Assembly (NCBI GenBank): GCA_965217865.1
Contig: CBDCJO010000002.1
Location: forward strand, 1 to 64,000
Direction: 5' to 3'
Length of the DNA: 64,000 nt
Source of the DNA: Candidatus Latescibacterota bacterium
Lineage (GTDB): Bacteria; Latescibacterota; UBA2968; SICM01
Positions 7,563 to 62,914 of this stretch are shown here, piece by piece. The number at the start of each line of letters is the position of its first letter. The stretch's first letter is position 1. A model generated the notes under the pieces. It did no database searches. It had not been told where the DNA came from and saw only the letters and a list, made by a program, of their open reading frames with translations. The translations under genes and the position numbers were made by a program.

Positions 7563-8010
7563 GTTATGACTGACGAACAGAGAATGGTTCCGGGGAGAGG
7601 ATCATATGGGGAGCCATATTCCCATCCGCCAACTTCGGCGGTCGTCCGTTAACGCAAGACCCCGTGGGGCAACCCTTCGGGGTCCTGTCGTTTCTGCCGT
7701 ATTCACAAACACTTGTGCCACCTCCTTCCCTTTCTGCCGATTCTCTGTTTCAAAGCTTTTCCCCCGGTGTCCGAGCACAACCGTGGGGTTGCGTCCGCTG
7801 AGCAGAGATATCTCCTCCGGATTCTCTGTTTTTCGCGTCCACCTTGTTTAACAGCCCGGTTGCATCCGGGCGGCCGGCTTCGACGTTTCGGGAAGGTCCT
7901 CCGGCAAGTATTCACAGGAAGCCGGACCCGGTGGGTCCGGTCACCAGCTTACGGCAGCTCACCGGACAGCGGAAGCGGCCGTGCGCCCGGAGCCCGGAAT
8001 CGTAGCCGGC
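7563..8010 (+). repeat. long structured non-coding element, copy A
   Basis: High identity to 34627-34996 and 62542-62914; several hairpins; no conserved ORF. Confidence 0.9.
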
Positions 8011-8059
8011 GACAAGCGTCGTGGCGAACGGCACTTGTGCACTCTCCCGGGTCTACACG

Positions 8060-8547
8060 GTCGAGGCAACTCGCCTCAAACGGCTCGGCGCACACTTATA
8101 CTCTCAAGAAGGAGAAGCGCTACCGTTATTATGTCTGCCGGAATGCCCGGCAGCGGGGCCGGGCGTCGTGTCCGGGCAAGTCGCTTAATGCTCACGAGAT
8201 CGAAACCGCAGTGGTGGAGCACGTCCGCGGCACCGGGATGAACGAACAGGTCGTGGCGGCCACAGTGGCCAAAGCGCGGGAACAGCGGCTGACCGCTCTC
8301 CGGGAAGAGGCTTTCGCTCTCGAGCGGGAAGCCGTGGATGAAAGCGACCTCGCCCGGGCCCCTGGAGGTCTTCGACCCGGTCTGGGCGGCGCTGGCTCCG
8401 AGGGAGCAGGCCCGAAGACTCCGGCTGCTCATCGAGCGGATCGGCTACGACGGACGGGACGGCACGGTGACCGTCACCTTTCGCCCACCCGGCATCGAGG
8501 CGCTGTGCCGGAAGGCGGGTCTCAACGGACAGGAGGTCATGCGATGA
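8060..8547 (+). pseudogene. large serine recombinase C-terminal fragment (zinc ribbon, coiled coil)
   Basis: RYRYYVC..CPGKSLNAHEIETAVV, frameshift, then FDPVWAALAPREQAR..LIERIGYDG. Confidence 0.8.
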
Positions 8548-8745
8548 GCGGTCGCGCATCCGATGCAACCCGGGCCGGACCCGGACCCCTGGAAGTGTCC
8601 TTCACGTTCCAGCGCGGAAACGGCCGGAACAACGGCTGCCGCCACACGGATCAGGACCGGAATGTCGAGCCGGGGAATATACCTCGCATATCGAGACTGA
8701 CGGCCCTGGCGATCCGGTTCGAGGGGCTGGTCCGGTTCAAATCCT
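8544..8745 (+). pseudogene. truncated serine-recombinase-associated small protein
   Basis: GNIPRISRLTALAIRFEGLVR motif, typical of the gene following such recombinases; ATGA coupling. Confidence 0.6.
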
Positions 8746-8747
8746 GT

Positions 8748-9070
8748 TGACCCACGGCCACGGGGACCATACCGTCCACGACCAGCATATCAACACCGAT
8801 CCTGGCGTTTCCGATCGCCCCATCCGGGTTTTTCGGAAACCATGCACAACGGGCGCTATCGACCAGCCGCTGTCCGTGCAGACCGAGAATGTTTGCCAGT
8901 GCCACAATCCGGGCATCATCAGGAACGAATCCTGCGCCGGTAATCCGTGCGAGATCCCCAGCCTTTAGCCCGGACCTCTGCTCCACATCCCGCTGTGCAA
9001 GCCCTTGACCCCGGAGGGACTTTCCCACCACATCTTCGAACAGATCCTCAAGGGCGGTGTAGTAAGACAT
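8748..9070 (-). pseudogene. HTH + MBL-fold hydrolase, N-terminal part only
   Basis: LEDLFEDVVGKSLRGQGL..ALANILGL HTH N-terminus; truncated where recombinase-element sequence begins. Confidence 0.55.
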
Positions 9071-9109
9071 AATAAAATCCCCCATATCCGGGTGACCCGA
9101 AACATTCAC

Positions 9110-9143: not shown

Positions 9144-9162
9144 GAATGGAAAAACACCCGCC

Positions 9163-20928: not shown

Positions 20929-21444
20929 CTGCCCATCGCGATCACGCGTCGTCGGCTGCCTCGATTACGAGACCCTCGGTCGCCGCCAGTTCTTCCAATA
21001 TGGTCGCGATCTGGTCACGGGAGTAGCCGCAGGCGCGTTCCAGAACCCATGCGAGTTCAACGGTCCTCAATCTGCGCATGGTCAAACTTCAACTTGAAAG
21101 AGTTCGGTCTTCTCCAAAGGCCAGCATCGAACTCCCAAGCGCGAATGTAATCTTCAATGGCTCTCCATGCATCGTCTTTTCTCAGAGGGGCGTCAGCCCC
21201 CTCGTCGCCTGTGGTTCTTGTTCCGGGTTCCCGTTTCCGCTTGATTTGTCCACAGGCCAGTCGCTCCTACTGCTTGTTCTTTAACTGCTTGTAAGGTATG
21301 CGCTTTCACCGTGGAAAACTTCCCCGGATCGCCGGTATTTGTGAAAAAAACCGGCCACAGGAAGCCCCAGGAGCGCGTTTCAGCGGCTCAGCCTATAGTT
21401 GTAGTGTGAAAGACAAAAAGAGGCCATCAAAAGGGGCATTTCAG

Positions 21445-22947
21445 ATGAGAGAATATAGGAAGATTCTTCGGAACAGGGAAGCACGAATTGTCCGTCGTTT
21501 GCGTCGGAAGCAGTGGTGCAGTCAGGTCAAGCCTATGATGTCTGGGGGAAACATCCACTACGAGATAAGTGGGAAGGCCGAGGCGATCACGTGTGGGGGG
21601 ATCGGCGCGTTTCACCACATGGTCCGCAGGGTTGGGCTGGTGAAAGAGATTGACCGTCATCTTCATCTTTTGAAAGTGCATTTGCCCTATCACGAATCAG
21701 ACCACGTTCTGAACATCGCCTACAATGCGCTGGTTGGTGGTCAACGCCTTGAAGACATTGAGCTGCGCCGCCAGGATGCCACGTTCCTGAACGCTTTGGG
21801 CGCTCAGCGTCTCCCGGATCCGGCCACAGCAGGCGACTTTACACGTCGTTTCCGGCCATCGGATATCGAGACGTTGATGGATTGCATCAACCGGGTGCGC
21901 ACCCGGATCTGGAAAAAGCGCGCCAGGGGCGAACTCAAAGAAGCCCTCATCGACATCGACGGCACCCTGGCCACCACTCTCGGAGAACGCAAGCAGGGCA
22001 TGGCCCTGTCATACAACGGTATCTGGGGATACCATCCTCTCGTGGTCTCTCTGGCGAACACCAGGGAGGTGTTGTTTCTTGTGAATCGACCCGGCAATGT
22101 GCCCAGCCACGACGGTGCCGTAAAGTGGATCGATCGCGCCATCGCGCTGGTCGCCCCTTTCGCCAAACGCATCTGCCTGCGCGGAGACACCGGCTTCTCA
22201 CTCACCCGGCACTTCGATCGTTGGTCGGAAAAGGTCGACTTCGTCTTCGGCATGGATGCTTACAGAGGATTGGTCAAGATCGCCAAATCCCTGTCACAGA
22301 GCGATTGGGAGCCCTTTGAACGACAACCCAAATACCAGGTCAAAACCTCCCAGAGACAGAAACGCGAGAACGTGAAAGCCCGGATCATCCGGGAGCGCGG
22401 CTTCAAAAACATCCGACTTGCCAGTGAACGTGTTGCCGGGGTTTCGTATCGTCCTGCTCGATGCAGGAAGACCTGTCGACTCGTGATCCTCGAAAAGAAC
22501 CTGAGCGTCGAACGCGGCGAAAACGCCCTGTTCGATGACAAGCGCTATTTCTTCTACATTACCACCCGAAAAGATCTTGCGGCCGCGGAAATCGTGAGGC
22601 TGGCCAATCGACGGTGCGATCAGGAAAACGTGATTGAACAACTCAAGAACGGGGTCAACGCCATGCGGATGCCCGTCGACAACCTGATGAGCAACTGGGC
22701 TTACATGGTCATGACCGCCCTGGCGTGGAACCTCAAAGCCTGGTTCGCGTTGATGATCCGAAAGCGTGAGCGTCGCGATCAACTTCTGAGAATGGAGTTT
22801 CGCGCCTTCCTCCAGAATCTGATCTGGATCCCCTGCCAGATCGTGACCCGGGGAAGACAGATCATCTATCGTGTCTTGGGCTACAACCGGTGGATGACTG
22901 ACTTCTTCCCGGCCTGGAACAGAATCAGATGGCTCAAACCGGCTTGA
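21445..22947 (+). CDS. IS1380-family transposase (apparently intact)
   Basis: HLPYHESDHVLNIAYN, IDIDGT, GYHPL, LRGDTGF, RCDQENVIEQLKNG; right end near 23143-23162. Confidence 0.9.
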   Translation: MREYRKILRNREARIVRRLRRKQWCSQVKPMMSGGNIHYEISGKAEAITCGGIGAFHHMVRRVGLVKEIDRHLHLLKVHLPYHESDHVLNIAYNALVGGQRLEDIELRRQDATFLNALGAQRLPDPATAGDFTRRFRPSDIETLMDCINRVRTRIWKKRARGELKEALIDIDGTLATTLGERKQGMALSYNGIWGYHPLVVSLANTREVLFLVNRPGNVPSHDGAVKWIDRAIALVAPFAKRICLRGDTGFSLTRHFDRWSEKVDFVFGMDAYRGLVKIAKSLSQSDWEPFERQPKYQVKTSQRQKRENVKARIIRERGFKNIRLASERVAGVSYRPARCRKTCRLVILEKNLSVERGENALFDDKRYFFYITTRKDLAAAEIVRLANRRCDQENVIEQLKNGVNAMRMPVDNLMSNWAYMVMTALAWNLKAWFALMIRKRERRDQLLRMEFRAFLQNLIWIPCQIVTRGRQIIYRVLGYNRWMTDFFPAWNRIRWLKPA

Positions 22948-23267
22948 CTGCCATGTCAGCACCTGTCGTCGTAACATCACAGGGACAAGTCCGTCCACCC
23001 CGGCTAAAACACGTCCGCAAACTCAGTTAATTAGACAATCGCATGCCGAAACAATCACAAAAACAGCCCAGACATCATCTCAAACAAGTCACAAGTCTGA
23101 AATGCTCCGAAATCTTGTATAACACACCGCTCAACAAGCCTGTTCGCTTATTTTAGGACTAGTAGAGAAAGAGCTGGATCTGTCAATCCTGACGGAAGTT
23201 GCGGAGGGAAACGGCTGAGCCCAGCGCGTCGGCGCGAGGCGGTGGTGCACGTGCGCAAGAAGACTCC

Positions 23268-24026
23268 ATGTCCGATTGGTTGAAGCCTGTTCTGGATCCG
23301 TACGACCGCAAAGCGCGGCTCAGTCCTGCGCTGCTTTGCGGCTTGCCGCTTGTCGCGTCGATTGTCCTACTGATTCCTCAGCTCGGGCCGATCTGGGGTT
23401 CGATTGGCGTCGTCGTATATGGCGGAGGGTACATGTTGCTGATCCAGATCGGCCGGGATCTAGGTAAGGGCCTAGAGGAGCGGCTATTCCAATCGTGGGG
23501 TGGAAGGCCCTCTGCGGCCATGCTGCGACATGCGGATGGTCGATTGGAGAAGCCGACCAAGGAACGTTACCGGAGGTTTCTGAGCGAGGCTGTACCCGGC
23601 TTGCCGCTGGTGTCCGCGGAGGACGAGCGGGAGAATCCCGAGAAGGCGCTTGCGGGATATGAGAGCGCGAACCGATGGTTGCTCGAGCAGACGAGGGACC
23701 ACGCGCGATTCGCGCTGTTGTTCACGGAGAACGTCAACTATGGGTTTCGTCGAAACCTGTTAGGCCTGAAGCCGATTGCGTTGGGTGTGGACGCAATCGC
23801 ATTACTGATCATGTTCGGCGTGGCAAGTGGCTCTTGGACAGGTCAGTTCGCCAGCACGATTGAGGCCGTCGCACCGGAGTGGTGGGCGAGTCTGTCAATC
23901 ACAGCTGTGCACATGCTGGCGTTCGTGGTACTCATCCGGGCTAAATGGGTGCGAGCCGCAGCCGAGACGTACGCGCGGCAACTGCTGGCGGCGTGCGACT
24001 CACTTGAGAGCGCAAGGAACACATAG
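23268..24026 (+). CDS. multi-pass membrane protein (defence-island effector-like)
   Basis: DPYDRKARLSPALL..WGGRPS..ENVNYGFRRNL; about 4 hydrophobic segments; ATG at 23268. Confidence 0.7.
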   Translation: MSDWLKPVLDPYDRKARLSPALLCGLPLVASIVLLIPQLGPIWGSIGVVVYGGGYMLLIQIGRDLGKGLEERLFQSWGGRPSAAMLRHADGRLEKPTKERYRRFLSEAVPGLPLVSAEDERENPEKALAGYESANRWLLEQTRDHARFALLFTENVNYGFRRNLLGLKPIALGVDAIALLIMFGVASGSWTGQFASTIEAVAPEWWASLSITAVHMLAFVVLIRAKWVRAAAETYARQLLAACDSLESARNT

Positions 24027-24111
24027 ACTTGACTAGACTGGACCGATTTTAGGGCGACGCGGTGCAAGTATCGCGGATACTCAACTGCGAGAAGATTAGG
24101 GAGCGTATTGC

Positions 24112-24990
24112 GTGAGCATTGTGCACTCTTACGCCGTCGGGAGCGGCGACATGTTTTCAATCCGACATGACTCGGATAACTGCACGATCATTGATTGCAG
24201 CATTTCGAAGGACGATCAAGACTGTCTATTGGGGGAGATTGACAAGCAACGTAAAGGCAAGACAATCACGCGATTCATATCCACACATCCAGACCAAGAC
24301 CACCTAATGGGCCTGTCGGCACTGGACGACCATATTAAGATCTTGAACTTTTATGTAGTGAAGAACAATGCCACAAAGGACGACGAAACCGACGACTTCA
24401 AGCGCTACAAGAACCTACGGGACGGAGACAAGGCCTTTTACATCCATAAAGGATGTACCAGGAGGTGGATGGATCAGAGTAATGAGGAGCGCGGCTGTTC
24501 AGGCATCAACGTCTGGTGGCCTGTGACTTCTAACGAGGACTTCAAGCAGGCGCTGCAGGATGCGGCCGATGGCATGAGTCCGAACAACATCTCTCCCGTG
24601 ATTACCTATTCTCTCGAAAACGGTGTCAAGATGGCTTGGTTTGGAGATCTTGAGACGGAGTTCATGGAAAAGATCGCAGACGAGATTTCGTGGCCCGAGG
24701 TTGACATTGTGTTTGCACCACACCATGGACGGGATAGCGGCAAGATCCCTGCGTCGATTCTGAATCAGATGGATCCCAAGATTGTGGTGATTGGCGTGGC
24801 GCCGTCCAAGGACCTGGACTACTATCGGAACTACAACACAATTACCCAGAATTCTGCCGGCGTTATCTACTTCGAATGCGTTGCCTATTGGGTCCACATT
24901 TATGTTGGAAGCTCAACCTACAGCGTGGACTTTCTCGAAGACAAAGGAGCTAGTTCCTACAGCTACTACCTCGGGTCTCTCCCCGTATGA
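24112..24990 (+). CDS. ComEC/Rec2-like metallo-beta-lactamase-fold hydrolase
   Basis: VGSGD, IIDC, THPDQDH, FGDLE, APHHG. Confidence 0.85.
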   Translation: MSIVHSYAVGSGDMFSIRHDSDNCTIIDCSISKDDQDCLLGEIDKQRKGKTITRFISTHPDQDHLMGLSALDDHIKILNFYVVKNNATKDDETDDFKRYKNLRDGDKAFYIHKGCTRRWMDQSNEERGCSGINVWWPVTSNEDFKQALQDAADGMSPNNISPVITYSLENGVKMAWFGDLETEFMEKIADEISWPEVDIVFAPHHGRDSGKIPASILNQMDPKIVVIGVAPSKDLDYYRNYNTITQNSAGVIYFECVAYWVHIYVGSSTYSVDFLEDKGASSYSYYLGSLPV

Positions 24991-25505
24991 TAGTGGACAA
25001 AAATTAATGTCGCCGTCGAATCCTGTTCGGTAGCCAACATGGAACAGGCGAAGTCGCGAACGTCTAGTCCTCGTCGCCAGCCGACCGTGGCGACAGTGTA
25101 AACGTTCGGTAACCTTTCTAATGAGGCAACTTGACAAAGTGATAATGGACCAAACGTGTTTGGTCCATTCCTCAAGGGATGCTTCGTCTACGTCTGCGGT
25201 CTGAAGCCACGCGTCGAAGCCTCGATAGATGGCGACGACACCGCCATGAACGCCGTAGCCTTCTATCGCTAGACCCGAACGCCGAGCCGAACCCATGAAA
25301 CTCGCGGCTGCCAATGGCCGAGAAGAACTACCCATGGATAACCGAAGCGCTCAACAGCGGCAACGGATTCTTGAGGGAACGAGCGACCTCGCGCTTCCGC
25401 AGCTGCGATCGCAGTGCTGCGGAGAAGCAGCTGGGCCGTCCCGTCGCGGCCAATGAACAATGGCTGAAAGATTGAGGTCGGGCTGCATTCAGGTAAGGAG
25501 AGACC

Positions 25506-26903
25506 ATGGCACGCATCACCACTGAAGTAACCAGGGAGATAATCGAGGATTTCGCCAAGGAGATCCAGAGAAAGCGAACGCACACTGCTAAGCCGTCAAA
25601 GGAAGTCATCAATTTCCGAGACGATAAGCTCTCCGGCACCGAACGGGATGTGTGGAAGGTGCCCATAGATCTCCTGCGGTACCGTAAGGACAACGGACGG
25701 ATCGCGTCCGACGTACTTGACTACGAACGCAACGTCGCCCCCCTTAGCGAAAAAGATGACCAGGCCCAAGCCATAATCAGGGAATTTCTTGAGAAGAAGG
25801 ACCCGGAGCGCACAGCTGTTCTAAAGAGGTCAATCGCCCACGGGGGCCAGCAGCAACCGGCGATCATCACTTGTGACGGATTCCTCATCAACGGAAATAG
25901 ACGCAAGATGGTGATGGATTGGCTCCAGAAGGAGAATCCTAACGGAGAGATATTTCAATATATGAAAGCTGTCATCCTGCCAAGAGAGGATGAGGAAGGT
26001 GGGCCCCCCACCCTGGTGGAAATTGAAAAGATCGAGAATCGATACCAGCTGCAGAGCGATGGGAAGTCAGAGTACTACGGTTTCGATCGTGCCTTGTCGA
26101 TAAAACGAAAGATCGACCTCGGTTTCACACTTGAGGAACAATTGAAGGACGATCCTACTTATGCTAAAAAGGCAGACCTCAATCGGGCAGTTGCTGATTA
26201 CCAAAAAGAATACCTCGACCCCTTGACCTGCATCGATCGTTACCTACGGCAATTCAAACGGGAAGGCCTTTACCGAACTATCTCAACAGGCATCACAGAC
26301 TCAGAGGGTCGTTGGCAAGCCTTCATAGATTATAGCAATACATACAATCGCTACTTCATCGATCCCAAGCGTCGAATTGAAATAGGCATAGAGGATGACG
26401 AGATCGGTGAACTAGAGGAAGCCGCTTTCGATGTCATTCGTCTTCGAACAGTGCCCGACATGCCCAAGGTTCATGCCATCATGCGGGACCTGTGGAAGTA
26501 CTGCCGTACAGACGACGGCAAGAAGGCGATCAAGAAGATTGTGGAGGAAGTGGACCCTGTACTTTCGCCAGGCGAGCGTGTTGATTCAGACGGAAAAGAA
26601 CTATTACCGGATGCAGCTGATGCCAAGTGGGCAGCTAAGAACAAAGAGTCAATAATAAACAACTTGAAGAAGGCGTCCCGAAGTCACGAGAGTCTGAAGG
26701 CAAGAGAGACACCCATAGAGCTTCTTGAGGGAGCTTACAAGAAACTAACCCACGACAACATGGATCTTAGCGCTATCAACAATGCTGACCTGCCGAAGGC
26801 GCATCGAATTGTCGCAGACATTGGTAAGAGGGCGCAATCACTTGAGTCTGAGATATACGGTTATTCGAAGAACTACAGGAAGCTTACAAAGAAGAAAACA
26901 TGA
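25506..26903 (+). CDS. ParB/Sulfiredoxin-like N-terminal domain protein
   Basis: LRYRKDNGRI..GQQQPAIITCDGFLINGNRR; RBS AAGGAG. Confidence 0.75.
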   Translation: MARITTEVTREIIEDFAKEIQRKRTHTAKPSKEVINFRDDKLSGTERDVWKVPIDLLRYRKDNGRIASDVLDYERNVAPLSEKDDQAQAIIREFLEKKDPERTAVLKRSIAHGGQQQPAIITCDGFLINGNRRKMVMDWLQKENPNGEIFQYMKAVILPREDEEGGPPTLVEIEKIENRYQLQSDGKSEYYGFDRALSIKRKIDLGFTLEEQLKDDPTYAKKADLNRAVADYQKEYLDPLTCIDRYLRQFKREGLYRTISTGITDSEGRWQAFIDYSNTYNRYFIDPKRRIEIGIEDDEIGELEEAAFDVIRLRTVPDMPKVHAIMRDLWKYCRTDDGKKAIKKIVEEVDPVLSPGERVDSDGKELLPDAADAKWAAKNKESIINNLKKASRSHESLKARETPIELLEGAYKKLTHDNMDLSAINNADLPKAHRIVADIGKRAQSLESEIYGYSKNYRKLTKKKT

Positions 26904-30741: not shown

Positions 30742-30808
30742 CGGCGGGCTGAACGGATTTCGGGAGCTTGCCCAGCACGGTTGCCTTGAGTCGCCCCGCA
30801 CGCGGGGG

Positions 30809-30868
30809 GACCGGACCACCGGGTCCGGCTTCCAGTGAATACGTACCGGAGGACCTTCCCAAACGTCG
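30809..30868 (-). repeat. long non-coding element, short inverted copy F
   Basis: Reverse complement of cgacgtttgggaaggtc..attcactggaagccggacccggtggtccggtc. Confidence 0.85.
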
Positions 30869-32070: not shown

Positions 32071-32159
32071 TCGATAATGGGAACCAAAGAAAGGCCTCAG
32101 GACCGACGATCGTGAGGGGCGACTCCAGAAATGATTGAAAAAATCGCAAGTTTCGTGCG

Positions 32160-32390
32160 GGAGGCGTTGAGGGATCTGCCCGGACACGACGATCGGCCCC
32201 GCTGCCGGGCACTCCGGCAGACGTAATACCGATAGCGCTTTCCGTTCCTGCCGGTACAGACGTGCGCCATGTCCGTCCCGCACGGCGTGCAGCAAAGCAG
32301 CCCCTTCAACAATGCCCCATACCGGTTGCGCACGTCCCTTCCGCCGATGCGGCCGTTCCTGCGGAGCGCGTCTTGGACTATGTGTCCACG
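32160..32390 (-). pseudogene. large serine recombinase zinc-ribbon fragment, copy 2
   Basis: GALLKGLLCCTPCG..RYRYYVC..CPGRSLNA, paralogous to 8060-8547. Confidence 0.8.
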
Positions 32391-34325: not shown

Positions 34326-34390
34326 AGTAATATAGCCGTTTGGCCGGAAGCTGTCAACCAGGGAGGCTTCAGATCCGAGCGATCAGAAGC
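34326..34390. repeat. 65-bp repeat, second copy at 62095-62159
   Basis: agtaatatagccgtttggccggaagctgtcaa..cagaagc, near-identical in both places. Confidence 0.85.
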
Positions 34391-34626: not shown

Positions 34627-34996
34627 TGGGGAGCCAGATTCCCATCCGCCAACTTCGGCGGTCGTCCGTTAACGCAAGACCCCGTGGGGCAACCCCTTCG
34701 GGGTCTTGTCGTTTCTGTCGTATTCACAAACACTTGTGCCACCTCCTTCCCCTCTCTGCCGATTCTCTGTTTCGAAGCGTTTCCCCCTGTGTCCGACCAC
34801 AACCGTGGGGTTGCGTCCGCTGAGCAGAGATATCTCCTCCGGATTCTCTGATTCTCTGTTTTTCCCGTCGGCCTTATTTAACAGCCCGGTTCGACGTTTG
34901 GGAAGATCTTCCGATACGTATTCACTGGAAGCCGGATCCGGTGGGTCCGGTCACCAGCTTACGGCAGTTCACCGGACAGCGGAAGCGGCCGTGCGC
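34627..34996 (+). repeat. long structured non-coding element, copy B
   Basis: Aligns to 7607-7986 and 62586-62914. Confidence 0.9.
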
Positions 34997-35430: not shown

Positions 35431-35546
35431 CGCCAAGCTCGAACGCAGCTTCGTCGAGGAGCGACGCTGAACCGGTTGCGTGAAACTCACAAGGACCTCT
35501 TCCACTGATTTGTTATATGCTCTTCATACCCTTGGCCAGGGGCATC

Positions 35547-35780
35547 GATGTTTCGGAACGTCCTTCGGTACGTATTCACTGGAAGCCGGACCCGATGGGT
35601 CCGGTCACCGGCCTACGGCATCTCACCGGACAGCGGAAGCGGCCGTGCGCCCGGAGCCTGGAATCGTAGCCGGCACAGCCCCCAGAAACACATAGCGGAC
35701 TTTGAAACGGATTCATTGGCCACACGGGATTCAAGAGTTGACCGGATACGCCAATTCTCATATATTTTCCGCAGTGTTTG
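35547..35780 (+). repeat. long non-coding element, 3' copy D with sigma70-like promoter
   Basis: Matches 43741-43945; TTGACC-17nt-TATATT at 35738-35766. Confidence 0.85.
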
Positions 35781-35886
35781 TCTGCCCAGGGCAACCTGAA
35801 TCTCAGTTTCCAGAGAACATTTTGTAAAAACAAGTCACTTACCCATCCCAAAAGGTCAATTCTGATTTATCTTGGACAGCAGTGGT
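35780..35886 (-). mobile_element. IS end remnant, inverted relative to 20216-20322
   Basis: Direct sequence homology. Confidence 0.6.
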
Positions 35887-38325: not shown

Positions 38326-38706
38326 GACCGGGATATAGTTCTCGTACTGGCGACTGGCCTCTCTTCCTCTTGGTGCTATTGGGAAGAGTTACGCGGCGAT
38401 AAGGAATCCTTTAGCAGACTGTTCGCAATGTGGACCTCATGATCGGTGGAGCGTGGATTCTGACATGGGATCAATTTATAAAGAAGGCGATAGTTACGCC
38501 GTCCCCGGCCCACTGCTTCGGTGAAACGAAACAGATCCCGCTGGTTCGTCCCCAGCTCCGCGCATGGTGGAGCGGATGGAAGGGAAGATTCGGGCGGCCA
38601 TCGGGCGGGTGTGTGTGGAGAGATGGCGAAATCAAAGGCGGTTGATGATTCAAAACCGAATTTTATAACAGTCAATAGGTAAAACTGTTTATGGATCACA
38701 GTCAAA

Positions 38707-39420: not shown

Positions 39421-39566
39421 TGGCTGCACCGATGGCGGTGTGGGCCTCTTTTCATGTGGGGGGTGATGGGCCTGCCAGCTTCGGAACGAAGTTCAGTTTC
39501 AACTATGGTGGCGGGTTGAAGGTGGCGTTGATCGAACCCGCGGTGAGCACGTGGAGGAGCCGGAAA

Positions 39567-43740: not shown

Positions 43741-43945
43741 TTCACGGGAAGCCGGACCCGGTGGGTCCGGTCACCAGCTTACGGCAGCCCACCGGACAGC
43801 GGAAGCGGCCGTGCGCCCGGAGCCCGGAATCGTAGCCGGCACAGCCCCCAGAAACACATAGCGGACTTTGAAACGGATTCATTGGCTACACGGGATTCAA
43901 GAGTTGACCGGATACGCCAATTCTCATATATTTTCCGCAGTGTTC
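43741..43945 (+). repeat. long non-coding element, 3' copy E with promoter
   Basis: TTGACC(43904)-17nt-TATATT(43927); near-identical to copy D. Confidence 0.85.
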
Positions 43946-43979
43946 GTTTTGTTTCCCTTTTGTGCGCAGGTGAGTAGAA

Positions 43980-44746: not shown

Positions 44747-47557
44747 ATGCGCCTGTCGTGGAACGAGGTTCGCGCCCGCGCCGCCGCCTTCGCCGAGGAG
44801 TGGCGAGACGCGGCCTACGAGAAGGGCGAGACGCAAAGCTTCTATAACGACTTCTTCGAGATATTCGGGGTCCGGCGCCGAACCGTCGCGCGCTACGAGG
44901 AGCACGTAAAGCGGCTCGACAACACGCACGGTTACATTGATTTGTTCTGGCCCGGCGTCTTGATCGTCGAGCATAAGAGCGCCGGACGCGATCTCGCCCT
45001 CGCCTATGGTCAGGCCGGGGAATACTTCGACGCCCTGCCCGAGCAGAACCGGCCGCGCTACATTCTGGCAAGCGACTTCCAGACCTTCGAGCTTCACGAT
45101 CTCGACGAACGGGAGAAGGCCGCTTTCCCTCTCGTGGACCTGCCCGCCCACGTGGAGGCGTTCGGCTTCATCCTGGGCGTGCAGCGCCGGACCTTCCGCG
45201 ACCAGGACCCGACCAACATCAAGGCCGCCGAACTGGTCGGCAGGCTGCATGACGCTCTCGACGCGGCGGGCTACCGGGGCCACGACCTGGAGCGCTTCCT
45301 GGTGCGAATCGTTTTCTGCCTGTTCGCGGACGACACGGGCATATTCGAGCCGCGCGACATCTTCCTCGACTTCATCGAGACGCGCACGGGAGAGGACGGC
45401 GCCGATCTCGGGCCGTGGCTGTCGCAATTGTTTCAGGTTCTGGATACGCCGGAGGACGACCGCACCGCGACGCTCGACGAAAACCTAGCGCAGTTCCCCT
45501 ATGTCAACGGCGAATTGTTCGACGGGCCGCTACGCATTCCGTCCTTCGATGCGGCCATGCGCGGGGCGCTGCTGGATGTTTGCCGGTTCGACTGGTCGAA
45601 CATCTCGCCGGCGATCTTCGGGGCGCTGTTCCAGTCGGTCATGGACCCGAAGGAGCGCCGCGCCCAGGGCGCGCACTACACCACCGAGAAGAACATCCTG
45701 AAGGTGATCGAGCCGCTGTTCATGGACGACCTGCGGGCCGAATTCGCACGGCTCAAGTCCCGCAAGGACAACCGCCGTCTTGCCGAGCTTCGGCGGTTTC
45801 AGGAGAAGCTGGGGCGGATGCGGTTCTTCGACCCGGCCTGCGGTTGCGGCAACTTCCTCATCATCGCCTACCGGGAACTGCGGGCACTGGAAATCGACGT
45901 GCTCAAGGAACTTCATCCCGGCAAGCAGATGGACGCGCTGGCGCAAACCCTGTCGCGGATCGATGTCGATCAGTTCTACGGGATCGAGCTTGGCGAGTTC
46001 CCGGCCCGCATCGCGGAGACCGCGATGTGGATGATGGACCACATCATGAACAACCGGCTGAGCCTGGAGTTCGGTCAGACCTACGCCCGAATTCCTCTGG
46101 AGAAGTCGCCGCACATCGTCCATGGCGATGCGTTGGAAACCGATTGGGCGGACCTGCTGCCGCCGGAGGATTGCTCGTTCGTGTTCGGCAATCCGCCCTT
46201 CGTGGGCGCGAAGTATCAGACGGGGGACCAACGCGCCCAGGTGCGCGGGATCGCGGCGCTGGGCAAGAGCGGCGGCACGCTCGATTACGTCGCCGCGTGG
46301 TTCATCAAGGCGGGAGAGTATCTGCAGGGCAGCCGTGCCCAGATCGGCTTCGTCGCCACCAACTCGATCACGCAAGGCGAACAGGTCGCGCAACTGTGGC
46401 CTGTCCTGTTCGGGCGCTGCAAGCTGGAGGTGGCCTTCGCACACCGCACCTTCGCGTGGGGATCGGACGCGCGCGGCAAGGCGCATGTGCACGTCATTAT
46501 TCTCGGACTCGATCGGCGGGAGGATGTGCGAACGGAAAAGCGCCTGTTCGGCTATCCCGACATCAACGGCGAGCCGGAGGAGAGCCGCCATGCGGCGCTC
46601 TCGCCCTATCTGTTCGACGCGGGCGGACTTGCGGATCCGCATCTGACCGTGCGCGAGGAAAGCAAGCCGATCAACGGGATGGGGAAGCTGATTATCGGCT
46701 CCAAGCCAATCGACAACGGTCACTACATTTTCAAAGCGGAAGAACGTGCGGCATTTCTGGAAGCCGAGCCGAATGCCGCGCCTTTCCTGCGCCCTTTTGT
46801 TGGTGCCCGCGAATACCTGCAAGGCGGTGAGCGATGGATTCTTGCCCTGCATGACGCGCCGCCGGACGTGCTGGCACGGCTCCCGCGAGTTCGGGAACGT
46901 ATTGCCGCTGTCCGCTCATACCGAGATGCCAGCAGGAGCCGTCCCACGCAAAAGCTGGCGGAAACGCCCACGCTCTACCATGTGAACGTTCTCCCCACCT
47001 CACCATTTCTGGTGATTCCCGAGGTCAGCTCGGAGCGGCGAGAGTATGTGCCCATCGGCTGGCTCGCGCCGCCGGTGATCCCGAGCAACCTTGTTCGCGT
47101 CCTGGAAAATGCCACCCTTGCCGATTTCACACTGCTTACTTCCGCCATGCACATGGCTTGGCTCCGCCATGTTGGAGGGCGTCTGGAGAGCCGTTACCGC
47201 TACTCCATCGGCCTCGTCTACAACACCTTTCGGACCCCGCCCAGGACTTCAGACTGGTCGAAACTAGAGCCACTGGCGCAAGCCGTGCTCGATGCTCGAG
47301 CCGCTCATCCGGATGCTACGCTGGTCGACCTCTACGACCCCAATCTGATGCCGCCCAATTTGCGCCGAGCGCACCAACGACTCGATCGCGCCGTGGATCG
47401 ACTCTATCGACCGGCAGGTTTCGCTTCCGAGCGGGAACGTGTCGAGCATTTGTTCGGGCTCTATGAAAAGATGCTCGCACCACTGGAGGCCAGGATGAGC
47501 GCAAAACCGAGACGGCGGCGCGCAAGGCGTAAGCTAACAAGCAGAAGGACACGCTGA
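44747..47557 (+). CDS. MmeI-like type IIL restriction-modification enzyme (YeeA family)
   Basis: IDLFWPG..VEHKS nuclease, GAHYT, DPACGCGNFL, GNPPF, TNSITQGEQV, YRYS..VYNTF. Confidence 0.92.
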   Translation: MRLSWNEVRARAAAFAEEWRDAAYEKGETQSFYNDFFEIFGVRRRTVARYEEHVKRLDNTHGYIDLFWPGVLIVEHKSAGRDLALAYGQAGEYFDALPEQNRPRYILASDFQTFELHDLDEREKAAFPLVDLPAHVEAFGFILGVQRRTFRDQDPTNIKAAELVGRLHDALDAAGYRGHDLERFLVRIVFCLFADDTGIFEPRDIFLDFIETRTGEDGADLGPWLSQLFQVLDTPEDDRTATLDENLAQFPYVNGELFDGPLRIPSFDAAMRGALLDVCRFDWSNISPAIFGALFQSVMDPKERRAQGAHYTTEKNILKVIEPLFMDDLRAEFARLKSRKDNRRLAELRRFQEKLGRMRFFDPACGCGNFLIIAYRELRALEIDVLKELHPGKQMDALAQTLSRIDVDQFYGIELGEFPARIAETAMWMMDHIMNNRLSLEFGQTYARIPLEKSPHIVHGDALETDWADLLPPEDCSFVFGNPPFVGAKYQTGDQRAQVRGIAALGKSGGTLDYVAAWFIKAGEYLQGSRAQIGFVATNSITQGEQVAQLWPVLFGRCKLEVAFAHRTFAWGSDARGKAHVHVIILGLDRREDVRTEKRLFGYPDINGEPEESRHAALSPYLFDAGGLADPHLTVREESKPINGMGKLIIGSKPIDNGHYIFKAEERAAFLEAEPNAAPFLRPFVGAREYLQGGERWILALHDAPPDVLARLPRVRERIAAVRSYRDASRSRPTQKLAETPTLYHVNVLPTSPFLVIPEVSSERREYVPIGWLAPPVIPSNLVRVLENATLADFTLLTSAMHMAWLRHVGGRLESRYRYSIGLVYNTFRTPPRTSDWSKLEPLAQAVLDARAAHPDATLVDLYDPNLMPPNLRRAHQRLDRAVDRLYRPAGFASERERVEHLFGLYEKMLAPLEARMSAKPRRRRARRKLTSRRTR

Positions 47558-57074: not shown

Positions 57075-57125
57075 CGGGTTATGCTCTTCTCAAGTGAAAG
57101 ACATCCGCCTGCACGGACAGACAGG

Positions 57126-60100
57126 TCAATTTGATGACGCTTCCTTGCCGAAGTCGTTGGCAAAGATAAAAAAATCACCAAGCCCAATTATGTCATCCCC
57201 ATCCAGATCATACCGCGCTTCATATCCCTTATCGCCTTGACTTGATCCAAACTGTTCGGCAAACCGGAAAAAGTCGGCAAGGTCAACAGTACCATCGCCA
57301 TCAAAGTCGGAATTAGGGGCTTGAGGTGTGCTGTACGGCGACATATCCCACAGCAGAATCGTGCCATCACTTGACCCGGAAACGAGCATTGTCCCATCGG
57401 GGGAAAACGGCACGGAATGGACCCCGGCCCCAGATGTATGCCCCTTAAGGGTGGCGATATTTTCTCTTGTCGCCACGCCCCATAGCTTGACAACGCCATC
57501 ATCTGCCCCGGAAGCGAGCATCGTCCCATCGGGCGAAAACGACACCGATTGGACATACCCACCATGCCTGAGAGTGGCGATATTTTCTCTTGCCGCAACG
57601 TCCCACAGCCTGACCGTGCCATCCCCTGCTATGGAAGCGAAAGTCGTCCCATCGGGCGAAAACGACACCGATTGGACTGACCCACCATGCCTGAGAGTGG
57701 CGATATTTTCTCTTGCCGCAACGTCCCACAGCAGAATCCTGCCATCCCCTGACCCGGAAACGAGCATTGTCCCATCGGGGGAAAACGACACGGAAGTGAT
57801 CCAAGATGTATGCCCCTCAAGGGTGGCGATATTTTCGCCCGTCGCAACCTCCCACAGCCTGACCGTTCTATCATATGACCCTGAAGCGAGAATCGTCCCA
57901 TCGGGCGAAAACGATAAAAACTTGACCGAAGACGTATGCCCCTCAAAGGTGGCGATATTTTCGCCCGTCGCAACCTCCCACAACTTGGCCGTTCTATCAT
58001 TTGACCCTGAAGCGAGAATCGTCCCATCGGGCGAAAACGATACGGAACGGACTGACCCACCATGCCTGAGAGTGGCGATATTTTCGCCCGTCGCAACCTC
58101 CCACAACTTGGCCGTTCTATCATTTGACCCTGAAGCGAGAATCGTCCCATCGGGCGAAAACGATACGGAACGGACTGACCCACCATGCCTGAGAGTGGCG
58201 ATATTTTCTCTTGCCGCAACGTCCCACAGCAGAATCCTGTCATTCCATGACCCGATAGCGAGGATCGTCCCATCGGGCGAAAACGATACGGAACGGACCC
58301 AAGACGTATGCCCCTCCAGGGCAACAGCATTTCCCGTCGCCACGTCCCACAGCAGAATCCTGTCCTTCCCTGACCTGGAAGCGAGCATCGTCCCATCGGG
58401 CGAGAACGATACGGAACGGACCCAAGACGTATGCCCCTCCAGGGTGGCGATATTCGTGCCCGTCGCAACGTCCCACAGCTTGACCGTCCCACCTGCCCCG
58501 AAAGCGAGGGTCGTCCCATCGGGCGAAAACAACACCGAATTGACCTGACGCGTATGCCCTTCGAGGGTGGCGATATTTTCTCTTGCCGCAACGTCCCACA
58601 GCCTGACCGTGCCATCCCATGATCCGGAAGCGAGCATCGTCCCATCGGGCGAAAACGATACGGACCTGATCCTATCCGTATGCCCCTCCAGGGTGGCGAT
58701 ATTCGTGCCCGTCGCAACGTCCCACAGCTTGACCGTGCTATCATTCCACGGCACCGAAGCGAGGATCGTCCCATCGGGCGAAAACGATACGGACTGGACC
58801 ACATCCGTATGCCCCTCCAGGGTGGCGATATTTTCGCCCGTCGCAACCTCCCACAGCCTGACCGTTCTATCATTTGATCCGGAAGCGAGCATCGTCCCAT
58901 CGGGCGAAAACGACACCGAATTGACCTGACGCGTATGCCCCTCAAGGGTGGCGATATTTTCGCCCGTCGCAACCTCCCACAGCTTGACCGTGCTATCCCC
59001 TGACCCGGAAGCGAGGATCGTCCCATCGGGTGAAAACGACACCGAATGGACCCAAGACGCAGTGGGTAGCAGCGCGAGGGCACGAGCCGTCGCCACATCG
59101 TAAAGCCAGATGCCAACGCCACTTGCCACAGCGAGGCCTTGACCATCCGGTGAAAGGGCAACCGCCCTGTCGCTTTGACCGAGGCGTCCTTTTCCCAGGC
59201 GAAAGATTGCACCATCGGGTACATGCCACGTCCGATAATCCCGCATGCTCGGCATGGCAGGCGTTCCAACGCCCACCGCATTAAACGTCACCCGCTCAAA
59301 CCCGGCAACCCTCACCTCGACAGTGTTTGTTCCCGGATTGGGACCAAGGGTAAGGATACGCTCTGCCCGGCCGTTGGCATCGGTCGTTGCCTTATCAACA
59401 GTGAACCTTTCGCTGAGCCGCCCCTCGCCTGCGGTGACCGTAAACGTGACTTGCGCACCCGGTAAGGGATTATCATACTGATCTCTCACTTCAACTGACA
59501 AGGGGTTCGCCAACGCGGCACCGGGCATGCCCTGCTGGTTATCGTCGGAGATTTTCACCAGCATTCGTGGACGGGGCCGCGTCCACGCAGACATATCCCA
59601 CAGCAGAATCGTGCCATCATCCAATCGCACCTCTGACCCGGAAGCGAGCATCGTCCCATCGGGGGAAAACGACACCGAATAGACCGGTCCCGTATGCCAG
59701 ATAGTGGCGATATTTTCGCCCGTCGCAACGTCCCACAGATTGACCGTTTTATCCCATGACCCGGAAGCGAGCATCGTCCCATCGGGCGAAAACGACACCG
59801 AATTGACCTGACGCGTATGCCCCTCAAGGGTGGCGATATTTTCGCCCGTCGCAACCTCCCACAGCCTGACCGTTCTATCATATGACCCTGAAGCGAGGGT
59901 CGTCCCATCGGGGGAAAACGACACCGAACTGACCGCCACATCCTTAAGCGTGGCGATATTCGTGCCCGTTGCAACGTCCCACAGATTGACCGTTCTATCA
60001 TGTGACCCGGAAGCGAGGGTCGTCCCATCGGGGGAAAACGATACGGACCTGATCCAATTCGTATGCCCCTCCAGGGTGGCGATATTTTCGCCCGTCGCAA

Positions 60101-61706
60101 CGTCCCACAGATTGACCATGCCATCCGCTGATCCGGAAGCGAGGGTCGTCCCATCGGGGGAAAACGACACCGAACTGACCCAAGACGTATGCCCTTCAAA
60201 AGTGGCGATATTCGTGCCCGTCGCAACGTCCCACAGATTGACCATGCCATCCGCTGATCCGGAAGCGAGGGTCGTCCCATCGGGGGAAAACGACACCGAA
60301 CGGACCGCCACATCCTTAAGCGTGGCGATATTCGTGCCCGTCGCAACCTCCCACAGCTTGACCGGGCTACCATATGACCCGGAAGCGAGGGTCGTCCCAT
60401 CGGGGGAAAACGACACCGAACTGACCGCCACATCCTTAAACGTGGCGATATTCGTGCCCGTCGCAACGTCCCACAGATTGACCGTTTTATCCCCTGCCAT
60501 GGAAGCGAGGATCGTCCCATCGGGGGAAAACGACACCGAACTGACCCAAGACGTATGCCCTTCAAAAGTGGCGATATAGTATGGCGAAATTTCCACAAGG
60601 GTAAAAGACGCATAGCCCACATTCCCATCCGTATCAACGGCCTCGGCACGAATCGGATGCGCAACAGGGCTGGAAAGACTGCTAAAGATAGCAGATGGAA
60701 TAACGCCGTCGTAATCGAATTCAACGACGGCATCTTTTTCATCTCCCAATCCATGACACGCCTTCACTTCAAGATGTCCGGCGGGGGTGGAAACGAACAG
60801 GATCACCTGATGAAGCCCTTCTGAATCGCTGACTCCGAGTTGGACAGAGACGCTCTTTGAACCTGCCGGATATGCAGGCGGCGAAATGAGTTCGATGGTG
60901 GGCCCCCGCGCTTCTTCAATTGGGATATCGGAATTGAAGCAGGGATGCACGGCCAAAATTCCGGCACTGCACACAGATAACCGATCCAGTCCTAGGCCAT
61001 ACGACATGATGTACGCATTATCGTTGAAATCGTGCCGCAATCCGAAGGCATGTCCAAGTTCATGGGCCACCGTTTTGAGGGCCGCCGTTTTGATGCCAAA
61101 TCCGCCAGGAACCAACACAATGCCACCATTTTTTCCCCGCTGGCCTCCGACACCTGCTACAACACGATCAATTTTACCACTACTATTATCAATGATGATA
61201 AAGTAAATGTTCTCCATGACATCAAACGCCTGTTCAATCTCGTCTTGTACATTACCAAATGTGTCGTCAAGATAATGACCATCGGGGTGTTGACCGTCCA
61301 CGCGATGAACCATCGGCTCGCCCTGCGCATCCGTTTCAATGCGGAAGGTTTTATTCCCGTATCCGTGCGCCTGCATCTGCGCGGCATAGAAGGCCTGAAT
61401 CTGGAGAATCGCAACCTTCATCGAATCAACCTCTTCTGCGCGAAACGGGCGGTCATTGGGCAAGAAGTAGATGAGCCGCACCGTGCGGGGTTCCCCAACA
61501 TTCAAATCAAACGCCTGCTTGTGAGCAGCATAGAGACTGTCTCGTGCCCACATCTCGAAATCGACCGGTATGCAGAAAAACATATCATTTGCCGGCTGTG
61601 GAGAAGCATGGCTGACAGCCATCGGGGAGAGGAAGAAACCGGTCAACGCAAAAAGGCAAGCACTCAATCTGATTGGTGAGGTAAGACGAAGAAAGGATTT
61701 TTGCAT
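57126..61706 (-). CDS. secreted zincin metallopeptidase + WD40 repeats + Ig-like + dockerin/EF-hand protein
   Basis: HELGHAFGLRH; ~8 plus ~15 WD repeats (SVSFSPDG..LWDV); Ig-like TTDANGRA; C-terminal DFDGDGTVDLADF..DLDGDDIIGLGDF. Confidence 0.92.
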   Translation of the reverse strand: MQKSFLRLTSPIRLSACLFALTGFFLSPMAVSHASPQPANDMFFCIPVDFEMWARDSLYAAHKQAFDLNVGEPRTVRLIYFLPNDRPFRAEEVDSMKVAILQIQAFYAAQMQAHGYGNKTFRIETDAQGEPMVHRVDGQHPDGHYLDDTFGNVQDEIEQAFDVMENIYFIIIDNSSGKIDRVVAGVGGQRGKNGGIVLVPGGFGIKTAALKTVAHELGHAFGLRHDFNDNAYIMSYGLGLDRLSVCSAGILAVHPCFNSDIPIEEARGPTIELISPPAYPAGSKSVSVQLGVSDSEGLHQVILFVSTPAGHLEVKACHGLGDEKDAVVEFDYDGVIPSAIFSSLSSPVAHPIRAEAVDTDGNVGYASFTLVEISPYYIATFEGHTSWVSSVSFSPDGTILASMAGDKTVNLWDVATGTNIATFKDVAVSSVSFSPDGTTLASGSYGSPVKLWEVATGTNIATLKDVAVRSVSFSPDGTTLASGSADGMVNLWDVATGTNIATFEGHTSWVSSVSFSPDGTTLASGSADGMVNLWDVATGENIATLEGHTNWIRSVSFSPDGTTLASGSHDRTVNLWDVATGTNIATLKDVAVSSVSFSPDGTTLASGSYDRTVRLWEVATGENIATLEGHTRQVNSVSFSPDGTMLASGSWDKTVNLWDVATGENIATIWHTGPVYSVSFSPDGTMLASGSEVRLDDGTILLWDMSAWTRPRPRMLVKISDDNQQGMPGAALANPLSVEVRDQYDNPLPGAQVTFTVTAGEGRLSERFTVDKATTDANGRAERILTLGPNPGTNTVEVRVAGFERVTFNAVGVGTPAMPSMRDYRTWHVPDGAIFRLGKGRLGQSDRAVALSPDGQGLAVASGVGIWLYDVATARALALLPTASWVHSVSFSPDGTILASGSGDSTVKLWEVATGENIATLEGHTRQVNSVSFSPDGTMLASGSNDRTVRLWEVATGENIATLEGHTDVVQSVSFSPDGTILASVPWNDSTVKLWDVATGTNIATLEGHTDRIRSVSFSPDGTMLASGSWDGTVRLWDVAARENIATLEGHTRQVNSVLFSPDGTTLAFGAGGTVKLWDVATGTNIATLEGHTSWVRSVSFSPDGTMLASRSGKDRILLWDVATGNAVALEGHTSWVRSVSFSPDGTILAIGSWNDRILLWDVAARENIATLRHGGSVRSVSFSPDGTILASGSNDRTAKLWEVATGENIATLRHGGSVRSVSFSPDGTILASGSNDRTAKLWEVATGENIATFEGHTSSVKFLSFSPDGTILASGSYDRTVRLWEVATGENIATLEGHTSWITSVSFSPDGTMLVSGSGDGRILLWDVAARENIATLRHGGSVQSVSFSPDGTTFASIAGDGTVRLWDVAARENIATLRHGGYVQSVSFSPDGTMLASGADDGVVKLWGVATRENIATLKGHTSGAGVHSVPFSPDGTMLVSGSSDGTILLWDMSPYSTPQAPNSDFDGDGTVDLADFFRFAEQFGSSQGDKGYEARYDLDGDDIIGLGDFFIFANDFGKEASSN

Positions 61707-61804
61707 CAGGTTATGCTCTTTTCAAGTGAAAGACAGGTCAATTTGATGACGCTTCTTTGGATGTGCTTACGATTTCAGATGAGACAATACAGGAAGATTC
61801 TTCG

Positions 61805-61919
61805 GAACAGTCAACTCAAGCGCTTCGGAGCCGAACCACTGCACGCTGACCACCGTGACGAGGGAGTCGGATAGGATGCCATGCACCGCAGCATTGGCCT
61901 GGAGATCTTCCAGCTTCAT
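61805..61919 (-). pseudogene. SNF2/DUF3883-type helicase N-terminal stub
   Basis: MKLEDLQANAAVHGILSDSLVTVVSVQWFGSEALELT. Confidence 0.6.
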
Positions 61920-62319
61920 ACTCTGCTTCTGTTCCCTGTTTATATTTGAGAACCCGATATGCCCCCCGGAAGGGCGTGGCTTCCTGCTCCCCACGCGCCC
62001 ACCACGGTTTCGACGAGCGTGGTCTTGCCCCTCACTGCATTCCGGGGGTGCGCGAGACTGGGAGCCAAGACGATTAGGGGCAGTCAGACAATCGAGTAAT
62101 ATAGCCGTTTGGCCGGAAGCTGTCAATCAGGGAGGCTTCAGATCCGAGCGATCAGAAGCTACGAGCGGATGGAGGGGAAGATAAGAGTGGTGGCGATTTG
62201 GCGGGTGTGGGAAGAGGGGAGTTGAGATTTGCGCCGCACTATGTAGAATTTCTTCAGGTTAAACGGTTCCTCCGCCACAGCTTCCGACAGCGTGAGGCGG
62301 TCCAGAACGTGGACAACGA

Positions 62320-62462
62320 CCTCACCACGGCTTCTCGAGTTGATGCGTGAAGCCTGTGTTGGCCCCTACGAAAGGCGCGCCGTCAGCACCAAGGTGAACA
62401 GCGTGGGTAACGACGACCCGGATATCCTGATCCCATGCCGGAGAAGTGGCTGTTTTGACCTG
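62320..62462 (+). pseudogene. SOS-response-associated peptidase (SRAP) C-terminal fragment
   Basis: AVSTKVNSVGNDDPDILIP. Confidence 0.55.
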
Positions 62463-62541
62463 AAGGGCGGAAGTCGTCTTGACGCTGTCTTCCGCGTCTG
62501 CGGCGCGGGCGTAATTACGATAGCTCCTTTCAATACAGCAT

Positions 62542-62914
62542 GTTACGACTGAGGAACAGAGAATGGTTCCGGGGAGAGGATCATATGGGGAGCCATATTC
62601 CCATCCGCCAACTTCGGCGGTCGTCCGTTAACGCAAGACCCCGTGGGACAACCTTTCGGGGTCTTGTCGTTTCTGTCGTATTCACAAACACTTGTGCCAC
62701 CTCCTCCCCTCGCTGCCGGTTCTCTGTTTCGAAGCGCTCCCTCAGATGTTCGAGCGCAACCGTGGGGGGTGCGCCCGCTGAGCAGAGATATCTCCTCCGG
62801 ATTCTCTGATTCTCTGTTTTTCCCGTCGGCCTTATTTAACAGCCTGGTTCGACGTTTGGGAAGGTCTTCCGGTACGTATTCACTGGAAGCCGGACCCGGT
62901 GGTCCGGTCACCAG
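62542..62914 (+). repeat. long structured non-coding element, copy C
   Basis: Same 5' start as copy A (gtta[t/c]gactga.gaacagagaatggttcc). Confidence 0.9.

Follow-up and report, generated by a model that had tools for sequence, protein, structure and literature searches.

What is the repeat of roughly 550 nt that recurs through the accessory DNA of a Candidatus Latescibacterota genome? The question is raised by a stretch of 64,000 nucleotides (the window), which forms the first 64 kb of contig C2 in a 6.43-Mb genome of two contigs, C1 and C2 (assembly GCA_965217865.1, here G000). A preliminary description had listed six copies in the window and wavered between a large structured non-coding RNA (ncRNA) and the attachment (att) site, protein-binding array and promoter of a serine-recombinase element that outlast its genes. 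Our analysis supports the second view, through a tRNA-Asn junction, a catalogue of crossover cores, linked recombinase genes, a precise insertion and related loci in other genomes. The copies are very probably att junctions together with the leader of an element encoding a DUF2924 protein and a large serine recombinase (LSR), left by repeated insertion that was likely catalysed by the element's own recombinase, and eroded by deletion.

All six copies were recovered by self-BLAST of the window (85-97% identity, E 1e-136 to 1e-23), which paired 7607-7986 with 34627-34996 (87%), 7563-7947 with 62542-62914 (85%), 34627-34957 with 62586-62914 (93%), 35575-35781 with 43741-43947 (96%), 7876-8010 with 35541-35674 (90%) and, inverted, 30806-30868 with 62912-62850 (97%). 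The count itself had to be amended, as a genome-wide collection holds 71 repeat loci: 31 measure 370 bp or more, 14 measure 200-369 bp and 26 are shorter, which makes 45 of at least 200 bp. Clusters of them occupy three stretches of C2 (0-0.82 Mb, 2.44-2.51 Mb, 3.12-3.78 Mb) and the end of C1, where repeats of every kind abound. A motif said to recur in both orientations, ATTCTCTGTT, does so, and 101 of its 108 genomic occurrences lie inside repeat copies. The ~550-nt sequence is real, but it is not a single unit: it consists of three parts with separate histories, namely a left arm ending at a GA core, a leader, and a separate promoter-like module of ~110 bp that is present at 15 genome loci, several of them without a leader. 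The remnant of a serine-recombinase gene also adjoins the first copy (8079-8541, Pfam Zn_ribbon_recom, E 2.7e-10).

The only tRNA-Asn gene of G000 (C1:619978-620053) runs straight into the repeat, with the copy starting within its GGAGCCA end. Among relatives of the same class the repeat match starts at the CCA end of a tRNA in 6 of 13 loci, and the tRNAs fronting it in further relatives are Asn, Met, Ile-type (CAT) and Val. The order in one relative (G039) is tRNA-Asn, leader, a small open reading frame (ORF), DUF2924 and LSR. G000 encodes three DUF2924-LSR pairs with open frames (C2:134035, 821813 and 3485252), located behind leaders or a leader fragment, whose LSRs carry the Pfam Resolvase, Recombinase and Zn ribbon domains. 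A search of GTDB genomes with a full-length relative (P0006) as query returned 79 LSR loci from many phyla, of which 62 had at least 2.2 kb of upstream sequence. The leader is found upstream of the LSR in 53 of these 62 loci, and a tRNA or transfer-messenger RNA (tmRNA) gene stands in front in 40 (38 tRNA-Asn at 1.2-2.2 kb, one tRNA-Lys and one tmRNA), while DUF2924 is present in 74 and a small downstream gene in 66 of all 79. Because leader, tRNA-Asn and DUF2924 recur across related LSR loci, the repeat is the constant left end of islands that form a widespread family. The order at an intact left end is target, GA, leader of ~450 bp, small ORF, DUF2924, LSR, small gene and cargo, and an intact right end consists of an arm (L2, or L1 in the G000 lineage) followed by GA. 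The usual target across taxa is the 3' end of tRNA-Asn, and the tRNA gene stays whole.

Ten other leader-bearing genomes hold 1-9 leader matches each (all candidates scored), compared with the 45 copies of at least 200 bp in G000. One relative, G007, has 9 such matches and carries remnants behind five different tRNA genes, which indicates target switching in that lineage too. Exact-pattern scans for arm L1 in JGI metagenomes, for the long hairpin in IMG/VR and for the leader start in GTDB gave zero hits each; as records of the genome itself may be left out of these collections, the zeros show only that the exact letters of G000 are not widespread. Two paralogous DUF2924-LSR modules are additionally found at C2:1831061-1834431 and C2:1881700-1885087, with full-length LSRs (528-533 aa) and a related leader. 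One is located at the 3' end of the tmRNA gene and the other 50 kb behind it, representing a second accreting island family.

The crossover itself can be placed at the two letters GA. A Hamming scan over the 20 letters on either side of a GGG-GA-GCC site yielded 59 rows, 55 of them with GA; the four others were dropped as chance or deletion matches. Two left arms (L1 and L2) and two right arms (R1, which is the leader, and R2) meet at this core in all four pairings, with 28 L1-R1, 8 L2-R2, 5 L2-R1 and 1 L1-R2 junctions, and in 8 further cases an arm is joined to foreign DNA. L2 resembles the arm at the attP-type junctions of six LSR loci in other genomes and is the right end of the family; L1 was not found outside G000, either by exact scan of JGI metagenomes or by comparison of related LSR loci. 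L2-R2 stands 175 bp before L1-R1, and the 175-bp piece is present, precisely absent (giving L2-R1, as at 34631) or doubled; this variation was observed at C2:295662, 342119, 457441, 525794, 626385, 3528951, 3719026, 115410 and 2468692. A segment lying between two GA cores could exist as a minicircle.

Independently of the Hamming scan, 7 of 65 copies end in BLAST alignments at reference positions 52-56 (core at 51-52) and none at 57-123. Near-identical DNA (98-100%) to the right of the core is met by immediate difference to its left in the pairs 179447/219625, 34631/3267982, 62590/377109 and 34631/457441, and the reverse is also seen. Linkage between single-nucleotide polymorphisms (SNPs), profiled over 29 copies and 49 SNPs with the divergent copy C2:361129 left out, amounts to r2 0.024 across the core (null 0.036) as against 0.08-0.12 inside the leader. 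The cores are also not randomly oriented, forming 15 runs in 46 sites where 23.8 are expected (P 0.006), and the core at tRNA-Asn and the eleven same-sense cores after it make twelve in a row, provided that C2 continues from the end of C1.

A complete insertion of 11,032 bp is preserved; it is bounded at C2:822346 by a leader junction and at C2:811314 by an L1 junction, and contains leader, DUF2924, LSR, small gene, a reverse-transcriptase-domain gene and a transposase. Both flanks read as one in-frame receiver-GGDEF gene (a response regulator). The preliminary description had proposed looking for empty sites and circular forms in reads, and the first of these exists: contigs from three of four sequencing runs (X4, X7 and X8, from three studies) skip exactly 11,032 bp, whereas those of run X1 hold no empty-site joint. 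The element was inserted precisely into a target other than a tRNA gene and has hybrid attL/attR ends; its donor junction is L1-GA-R1, the commonest form of the repeat. Among its cargo, the reverse-transcriptase-domain gene (L050:5805-7250, reverse strand) encodes 482 residues.

The eight arm-foreign junctions all break 0-4 nt past GA, six exactly at GA and two 3-4 letters further on. Their partners are the receiver-GGDEF gene, cas1 (three times), the downstream gene of the element itself, an ATPase-like frame and two further stretches. Arm L1 and intact cas1 have only the two letters GA in common at the junction, and such minimal identity at a joint typifies serine recombinases. At C2:252262, 377109 and 3312904 L1 and the 3' part of cas1 meet at GA, and an intact cas4-cas1 pair remains near C2:607800. 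These joints look like the capture of host DNA at a pseudo-site.

How such an element might litter a genome with its ends can be outlined as follows. The excised circle would join right end to left end as arm-GA-leader, and its insertion at a tRNA end or at an existing core would leave one more junction of this kind per round. Because every round would add such a junction, most copies would look like attP, and attP-type junctions are indeed present in the chromosome of G000 and in six LSR loci of other genomes. Transcription of the tRNA might end at the long hairpin, which lies 35-70 nt behind the core, and linear motifs at fixed spacing in the leader might bind element proteins or RNA polymerase. 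Insertion sequences (IS) and homologous recombination between copies would have trimmed and mixed the copies, with the att end outlasting the genes.

Several observations weigh against this account. Just four of the linkage SNPs lie left of the core, and four-gamete conflicts affect 0.48-0.60 of SNP pairs within the leader; given these conflicts and the ragged 3' ends of the copies, homologous recombination and deletion must act too. The join of C1 to C2 is ambiguous, since the end of C1 equals window positions 1-6322 (6.3 kb at 99.97%) and this overlap also occurs, inverted, at C2:3.29 Mb. No circle joint returning over the 11,032-bp element was found among the run contigs (Logan), which drop rare forms. 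No right end could be assigned to the tRNA-Asn element. The three cas1 junctions are probably one duplicated event, and a matching left half of cas1 joined to the leader was not found. Finally, the terminator and binding-site roles are read from shape and position, and the long hairpin failed a strict terminator rule. At C2:574653 arm L1 meets GCCA, a hairpin and a pair of short repeats that resemble the tRNA-Asn 3' end, and this site might be the right end of the tRNA-Asn island in a displaced position; two family relatives gave no comparable empty flank, and a core tRNA-Thr gene lies in between.

Why did this element spread in G000 to such an extent? All three intact LSRs of the genome have 470-475 residues and are without 59 residues of the coiled coil. 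In an alignment of 124 LSRs (the 120 best hits and four sequences from G000) the segment following the zinc ribbon comprises 110-116 residues in 115 sequences but 57 in eight (three from G000 and five from close relatives), and a truncated sequence has 66. The same in-frame deletion junction is found at nine genomic places, i.e., in the three intact ORFs and in six remnants, including the one at 8271 in the window. In a structural model of P0006 (predicted local distance difference test, pLDDT, 76.5) the missing residues fall within a predicted hairpin of two helices (369-415 and 423-455); a single-sequence fold of the short LSR reached a pLDDT of 35 and was not used. The catalytic motifs YTRKS and VYKVDRLSR are intact in the short form, the ratio of nonsynonymous to synonymous polymorphism (pN/pS) among the three short ORFs is 0.28-0.45 (few sites), and forms of 471 and 475 residues recur in other assemblies. 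The full coiled-coil hairpin is a usual feature of serine integrases, though not required for the domain family, and its absence marks the G000 LSRs as a variant.

LI integrase without its coiled coil is promiscuous and treats attP x attB and attL x attR alike, yielding little product (PMC5499577), and the coiled coil of phiC31 integrase is essential, its deletion lowering the number of productive complexes (PMC10754689). Loss of the coiled coil may have caused the spread of att sites in G000. We put forward tentatively that the spread was driven by the deleted LSR, which would have lost the sense of site identity and direction and would therefore accept any two cores, and GA pseudo-sites too, as partners. 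The deletion in every intact LSR and in the six remnants, the pN/pS values of the short ORFs and the few matches (1-9) in other genomes with the leader speak for this idea, as do the promiscuity of the LI mutant and the role of L1, seen only in G000, as an element end in the 11-kb insertion. However, as the case is a single lineage, cause and coincidence are inseparable in it. The requirement of phiC31 for its coiled coil and the low yield of the LI mutant count against the idea, two full-coil LSR fragments and the two full-length paralogues of the tmRNA island in G000 may have done the work, several of the 9 matches in G007 lie behind different tRNAs, G000 is rich in repeats of all kinds, and some DUF2924-linked LSR subfamilies may be naturally short after the zinc ribbon. 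The relaxed targeting looks recent and lineage-bound, because close relatives are site-specific for tRNA-Asn. Conceivably, though we hold this with reserve, a natural integrase without a coiled coil turned a tRNA-Asn island into a directionless genome shuffler that joins ~50 att junctions to one another and to GA pseudo-sites within host genes, acquires new arms, captures host DNA such as pieces of cas1 and has built up more than 1 Mb of accessory DNA.

A less probable course of events would be a few insertions followed by passive copying, in which segmental duplication driven by IS and gene conversion multiplied the repeat and the recombinase played a minor part. The copies do lie in zones where 25-50% of the 25-mers are repeated, several pairs (such as 7611 and 2503257) share long flanks on both sides, and ragged 3' ends and frequent recombination inside the leader would be natural outcomes of such copying. 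But near-identical DNA on one side of the core with an immediate difference on the other, a 175-bp inter-core segment that is present, precisely absent or duplicated, and the precision of the 11-kb insertion all argue against passive copying, which we regard as unlikely.

The leader nevertheless has structure. The hairpins named in the preliminary description covary across taxa as local stems: across 23 leaders with a mean identity of 57%, 85% of the cells in four local helices are paired, compared with 36-56% in slid controls, and 19 of 31 pairs change on both sides, which 0 of 500 shuffles reach. As they covary across taxa, the hairpins are real local structures. In the long hairpin behind the tRNA end 9 of 14 pairs covary, G-U pairs occur and many members have a T-rich tail, so that its shape and position would fit a terminator. 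RNAalifold retained two local stems only for the 23 sequences (the long hairpin and the third one, 16 pairs; 6 pairs in the other alignment) and no long-range helix in either of the leader alignments. Elsewhere the top covariation pairs after average product correction (APC) are mostly non-complementary, and in the class-level set alone the covariation score does not exceed that of shuffles (203/500). Between the stems, conservation is highest in unpaired linear motifs at nearly fixed spacing (three ATTCTC, two of them 8 bp apart, two TTAAC, CGAC and GGTA-GTA), as would be expected for DNA binding sites or a promoter.

A large structured ncRNA gene in many copies, of the sort known under names such as OLE, GOLLD and ROOL, is for these reasons very improbable. 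The covarying helices, a whole-unit folding z of -2.0 to -4.4 and short contigs from RNA runs over 7414-7756 could be taken in its favour; yet the unit is cut by a recombination core whose sides reassort freely, and an Rfam scan of the window gave no family at gathering score. The RNA contigs (two unstranded runs, X17 and X20, from one study) are 89-293 nt long at a depth of 2-5, also cover the LSR remnant and may be DNA; positions 7838-8004 are uncovered, though a hole in contigs proves nothing. A single RNA of 550 nt is not supported, but a short structured leader RNA may exist. Even less credible is a ~500-bp unit resembling miniature inverted-repeat transposable elements (MITE) or repetitive extragenic palindromic (REP) sequences and moved by a transposase, for despite the high copy number, both orientations and lack of an ORF there are no fixed ends, terminal repeats or target duplications, the ends are ragged except at the internal core, and sequences homologous to it serve as the constant leader of LSR operons across many taxa. 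The self-contained non-autonomous mobile unit of 550 bp that had been considered earlier is likewise not supported, with 3' ends that are ragged and up to 2.6 kb of flank common to copies on one side of the core.

Read as att junctions and leaders, the copies in the window can be followed from left to right, on the forward strand where not stated otherwise. The first begins with arm L1 and its upstream subtype (7414..7610), of which 7414-7612 corresponds to the right end of the intact 11-kb element (199 bp, 98.5%), and continues through the GA core of an L1-R1 junction listed in the junction catalogue (7611..7612) into leader R1 (7613..8011), with a short hairpin, the long terminator-like hairpin, three ATTCTC, GTTTAAC and the third hairpin. 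An LSR gene remnant follows (8079..8627; zinc ribbon and C-terminus, coiled-coil deletion junction at 8271) in which DUF2924 and the catalytic part are deleted, such that the leader is joined directly to the last third of the LSR gene. Behind it stands the start of the small gene that trails the LSR in intact elements (8628..8735, the match to the element at C2:133474 reaching 8735). On the reverse strand, self-BLAST located a 63-bp inverted fragment of the 3' part of the leader without a core (30806..30868), and a second LSR remnant comprises the zinc-ribbon region (32121..32378). An element right end with the family-wide arm L2 (33710..34630) includes a 65-bp promoter module and a leftward ORF remnant (34015-34287) without a Pfam hit. 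The putative sigma-70-like promoter of this module matches the consensus in 11 of 12 letters (TTGACA-17-TATATT, 34329..34357, reverse strand) and is directed into the element right end; such near-consensus promoters facing into an element right end occur at 24 genome loci. The GA core at 34631..34632 forms the L2-R1 junction, the canonical attP-type junction of the family, and is followed by a 3'-truncated leader R1 (34633..34996).

Two 3' fragments of the leader without a core (35541..35683 and 43741..43849) are each followed by a copy of the promoter-like module that stands behind the leader in some copies; the first (35684..35784) reads TTGACC at 35738, 17 nt and TATATT at 35761, and the second lies at 43850..43959. 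The last copy starts from an element right end with arm L1 (61810..62589; 98% to the end at C2:252262), which holds a 65-bp promoter module (62095-62159) together with the 5' end of a helicase-like cargo gene running leftward, and passes through the GA core of an L1-R1 junction (62590..62591) into a 3'-truncated leader R1 (62592..62914). The window thus displays decay, from the leader fused to the last third of an LSR at 7611 to the core-less fragments at 30806, 35541 and 43741.

Behind the last copy, 62985-63035 gave no Rfam hit at gathering score, recurs with the same join at C2:3195020 and resembles what we take to be domain V of a group II intron. Other contents of the window include defence-type cargo at 23199-30741 (a metallo-beta-lactamase-fold gene, an SNF2 helicase and a D12 adenine methyltransferase cluster), an MmeI-like restriction-modification gene (44747-47557), a HepT-like ribonuclease (37368-37979) and, counted with this group, a proteasome-subunit-like ORF (2986-3885). 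A DDE_Tnp_1_4 transposase (21298-23163) has an inverted partial copy at 38706-39421 and 99% copies in and beside the 11-kb element. A secreted-looking protein of 1526 residues with 21 WD40 repeats is encoded at 57126-61706 on the reverse strand. Positions 6217-6560, probably a tyrosine-integrase remnant, are covered in other runs by short pieces with very deep contig cover (up to ~5000-fold in X1) and many loose ends, indicating a widespread repeat. The runs containing the stretch include two sponge metatranscriptomes, which suggests that the host is sponge-associated.

In the literature searched we found no description of the DUF2924-LSR family, although TIGER-type databases, supplements or subscription papers may hold members unnamed. 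The publications found on DUF2924 concern Wolbachia only, PMC12286644 makes no mention of the domain, and neither the motif HGGxSTG nor the combination of a multi-targeting LSR with tRNA and Cas2 gave a literature match. The repeat now defines the att site, the target (tRNA-Asn 3' end with a GA core) and the conserved leader of this family in many phyla, and supplies an integrase-att set open to testing as well as an initial context for DUF2924. The genome with runaway att sites is at the same time the one whose integrase lost the coiled coil, the part responsible for direction in model integrases; were the relation causal, the genome would put the coiled-coil model to a natural test and show one way in which a symbiont genome builds very large variable regions.

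Judged by its sequence, the G000 system carries the features of an LSR att system and appears to work like other LSR islands at tRNA-like genes. The ssrA islands of Dehalococcoides (with DsiB; PMC3146451) are likewise LSR islands at a tRNA-like gene, have the integration module beside attL and accrete in tandem, many of them having att sites without an integrase. G000 differs from them in its main target (tRNA-Asn), in a DUF2924-LSR module in place of dsiA/dsiB/parB/mom, in the conserved leader of ~450 bp, in a crossover that falls on GA close to the CCA end and duplicates hardly any target sequence, instead of a 20-bp direct repeat, and in junctions scattered across more than 1 Mb, some of them inside protein genes (PMC3146451). 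The tycheposons of Prochlorococcus (10.1101/2020.12.28.424599) share with G000 the tRNA target, successive insertions, att remnants, broken integrases and defence and other cargo. Tyrosine recombinases are used by 910 of 937 tycheposons and many carry replication genes (10.1101/2020.12.28.424599); no replication gene was found in the ORF list of the 11-kb element (five ORFs scanned).

Multi-targeting LSRs (Cp36, TndX-like, DUF4368 clade; PMC10083194) resemble those of G000 in using several unrelated targets and a 2-bp core; Cp36 is reported as unidirectional (PMC10083194). DUF4368 gave no hit in the G000 LSRs at E 0.01, placing them outside that clade by domain content. The engineered LI integrase with a deleted coiled coil (PMC5499577, PMC10754689) has, like the LSRs of G000, lost the hairpin after the zinc ribbon; the loss in G000 differs from the LI deletion (PMC5499577) in being natural, fixed in a lineage and leaving a short helical stump. 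If the proposed effect of this loss is true, G000 would represent the wild counterpart of a promiscuous laboratory deletion mutant.

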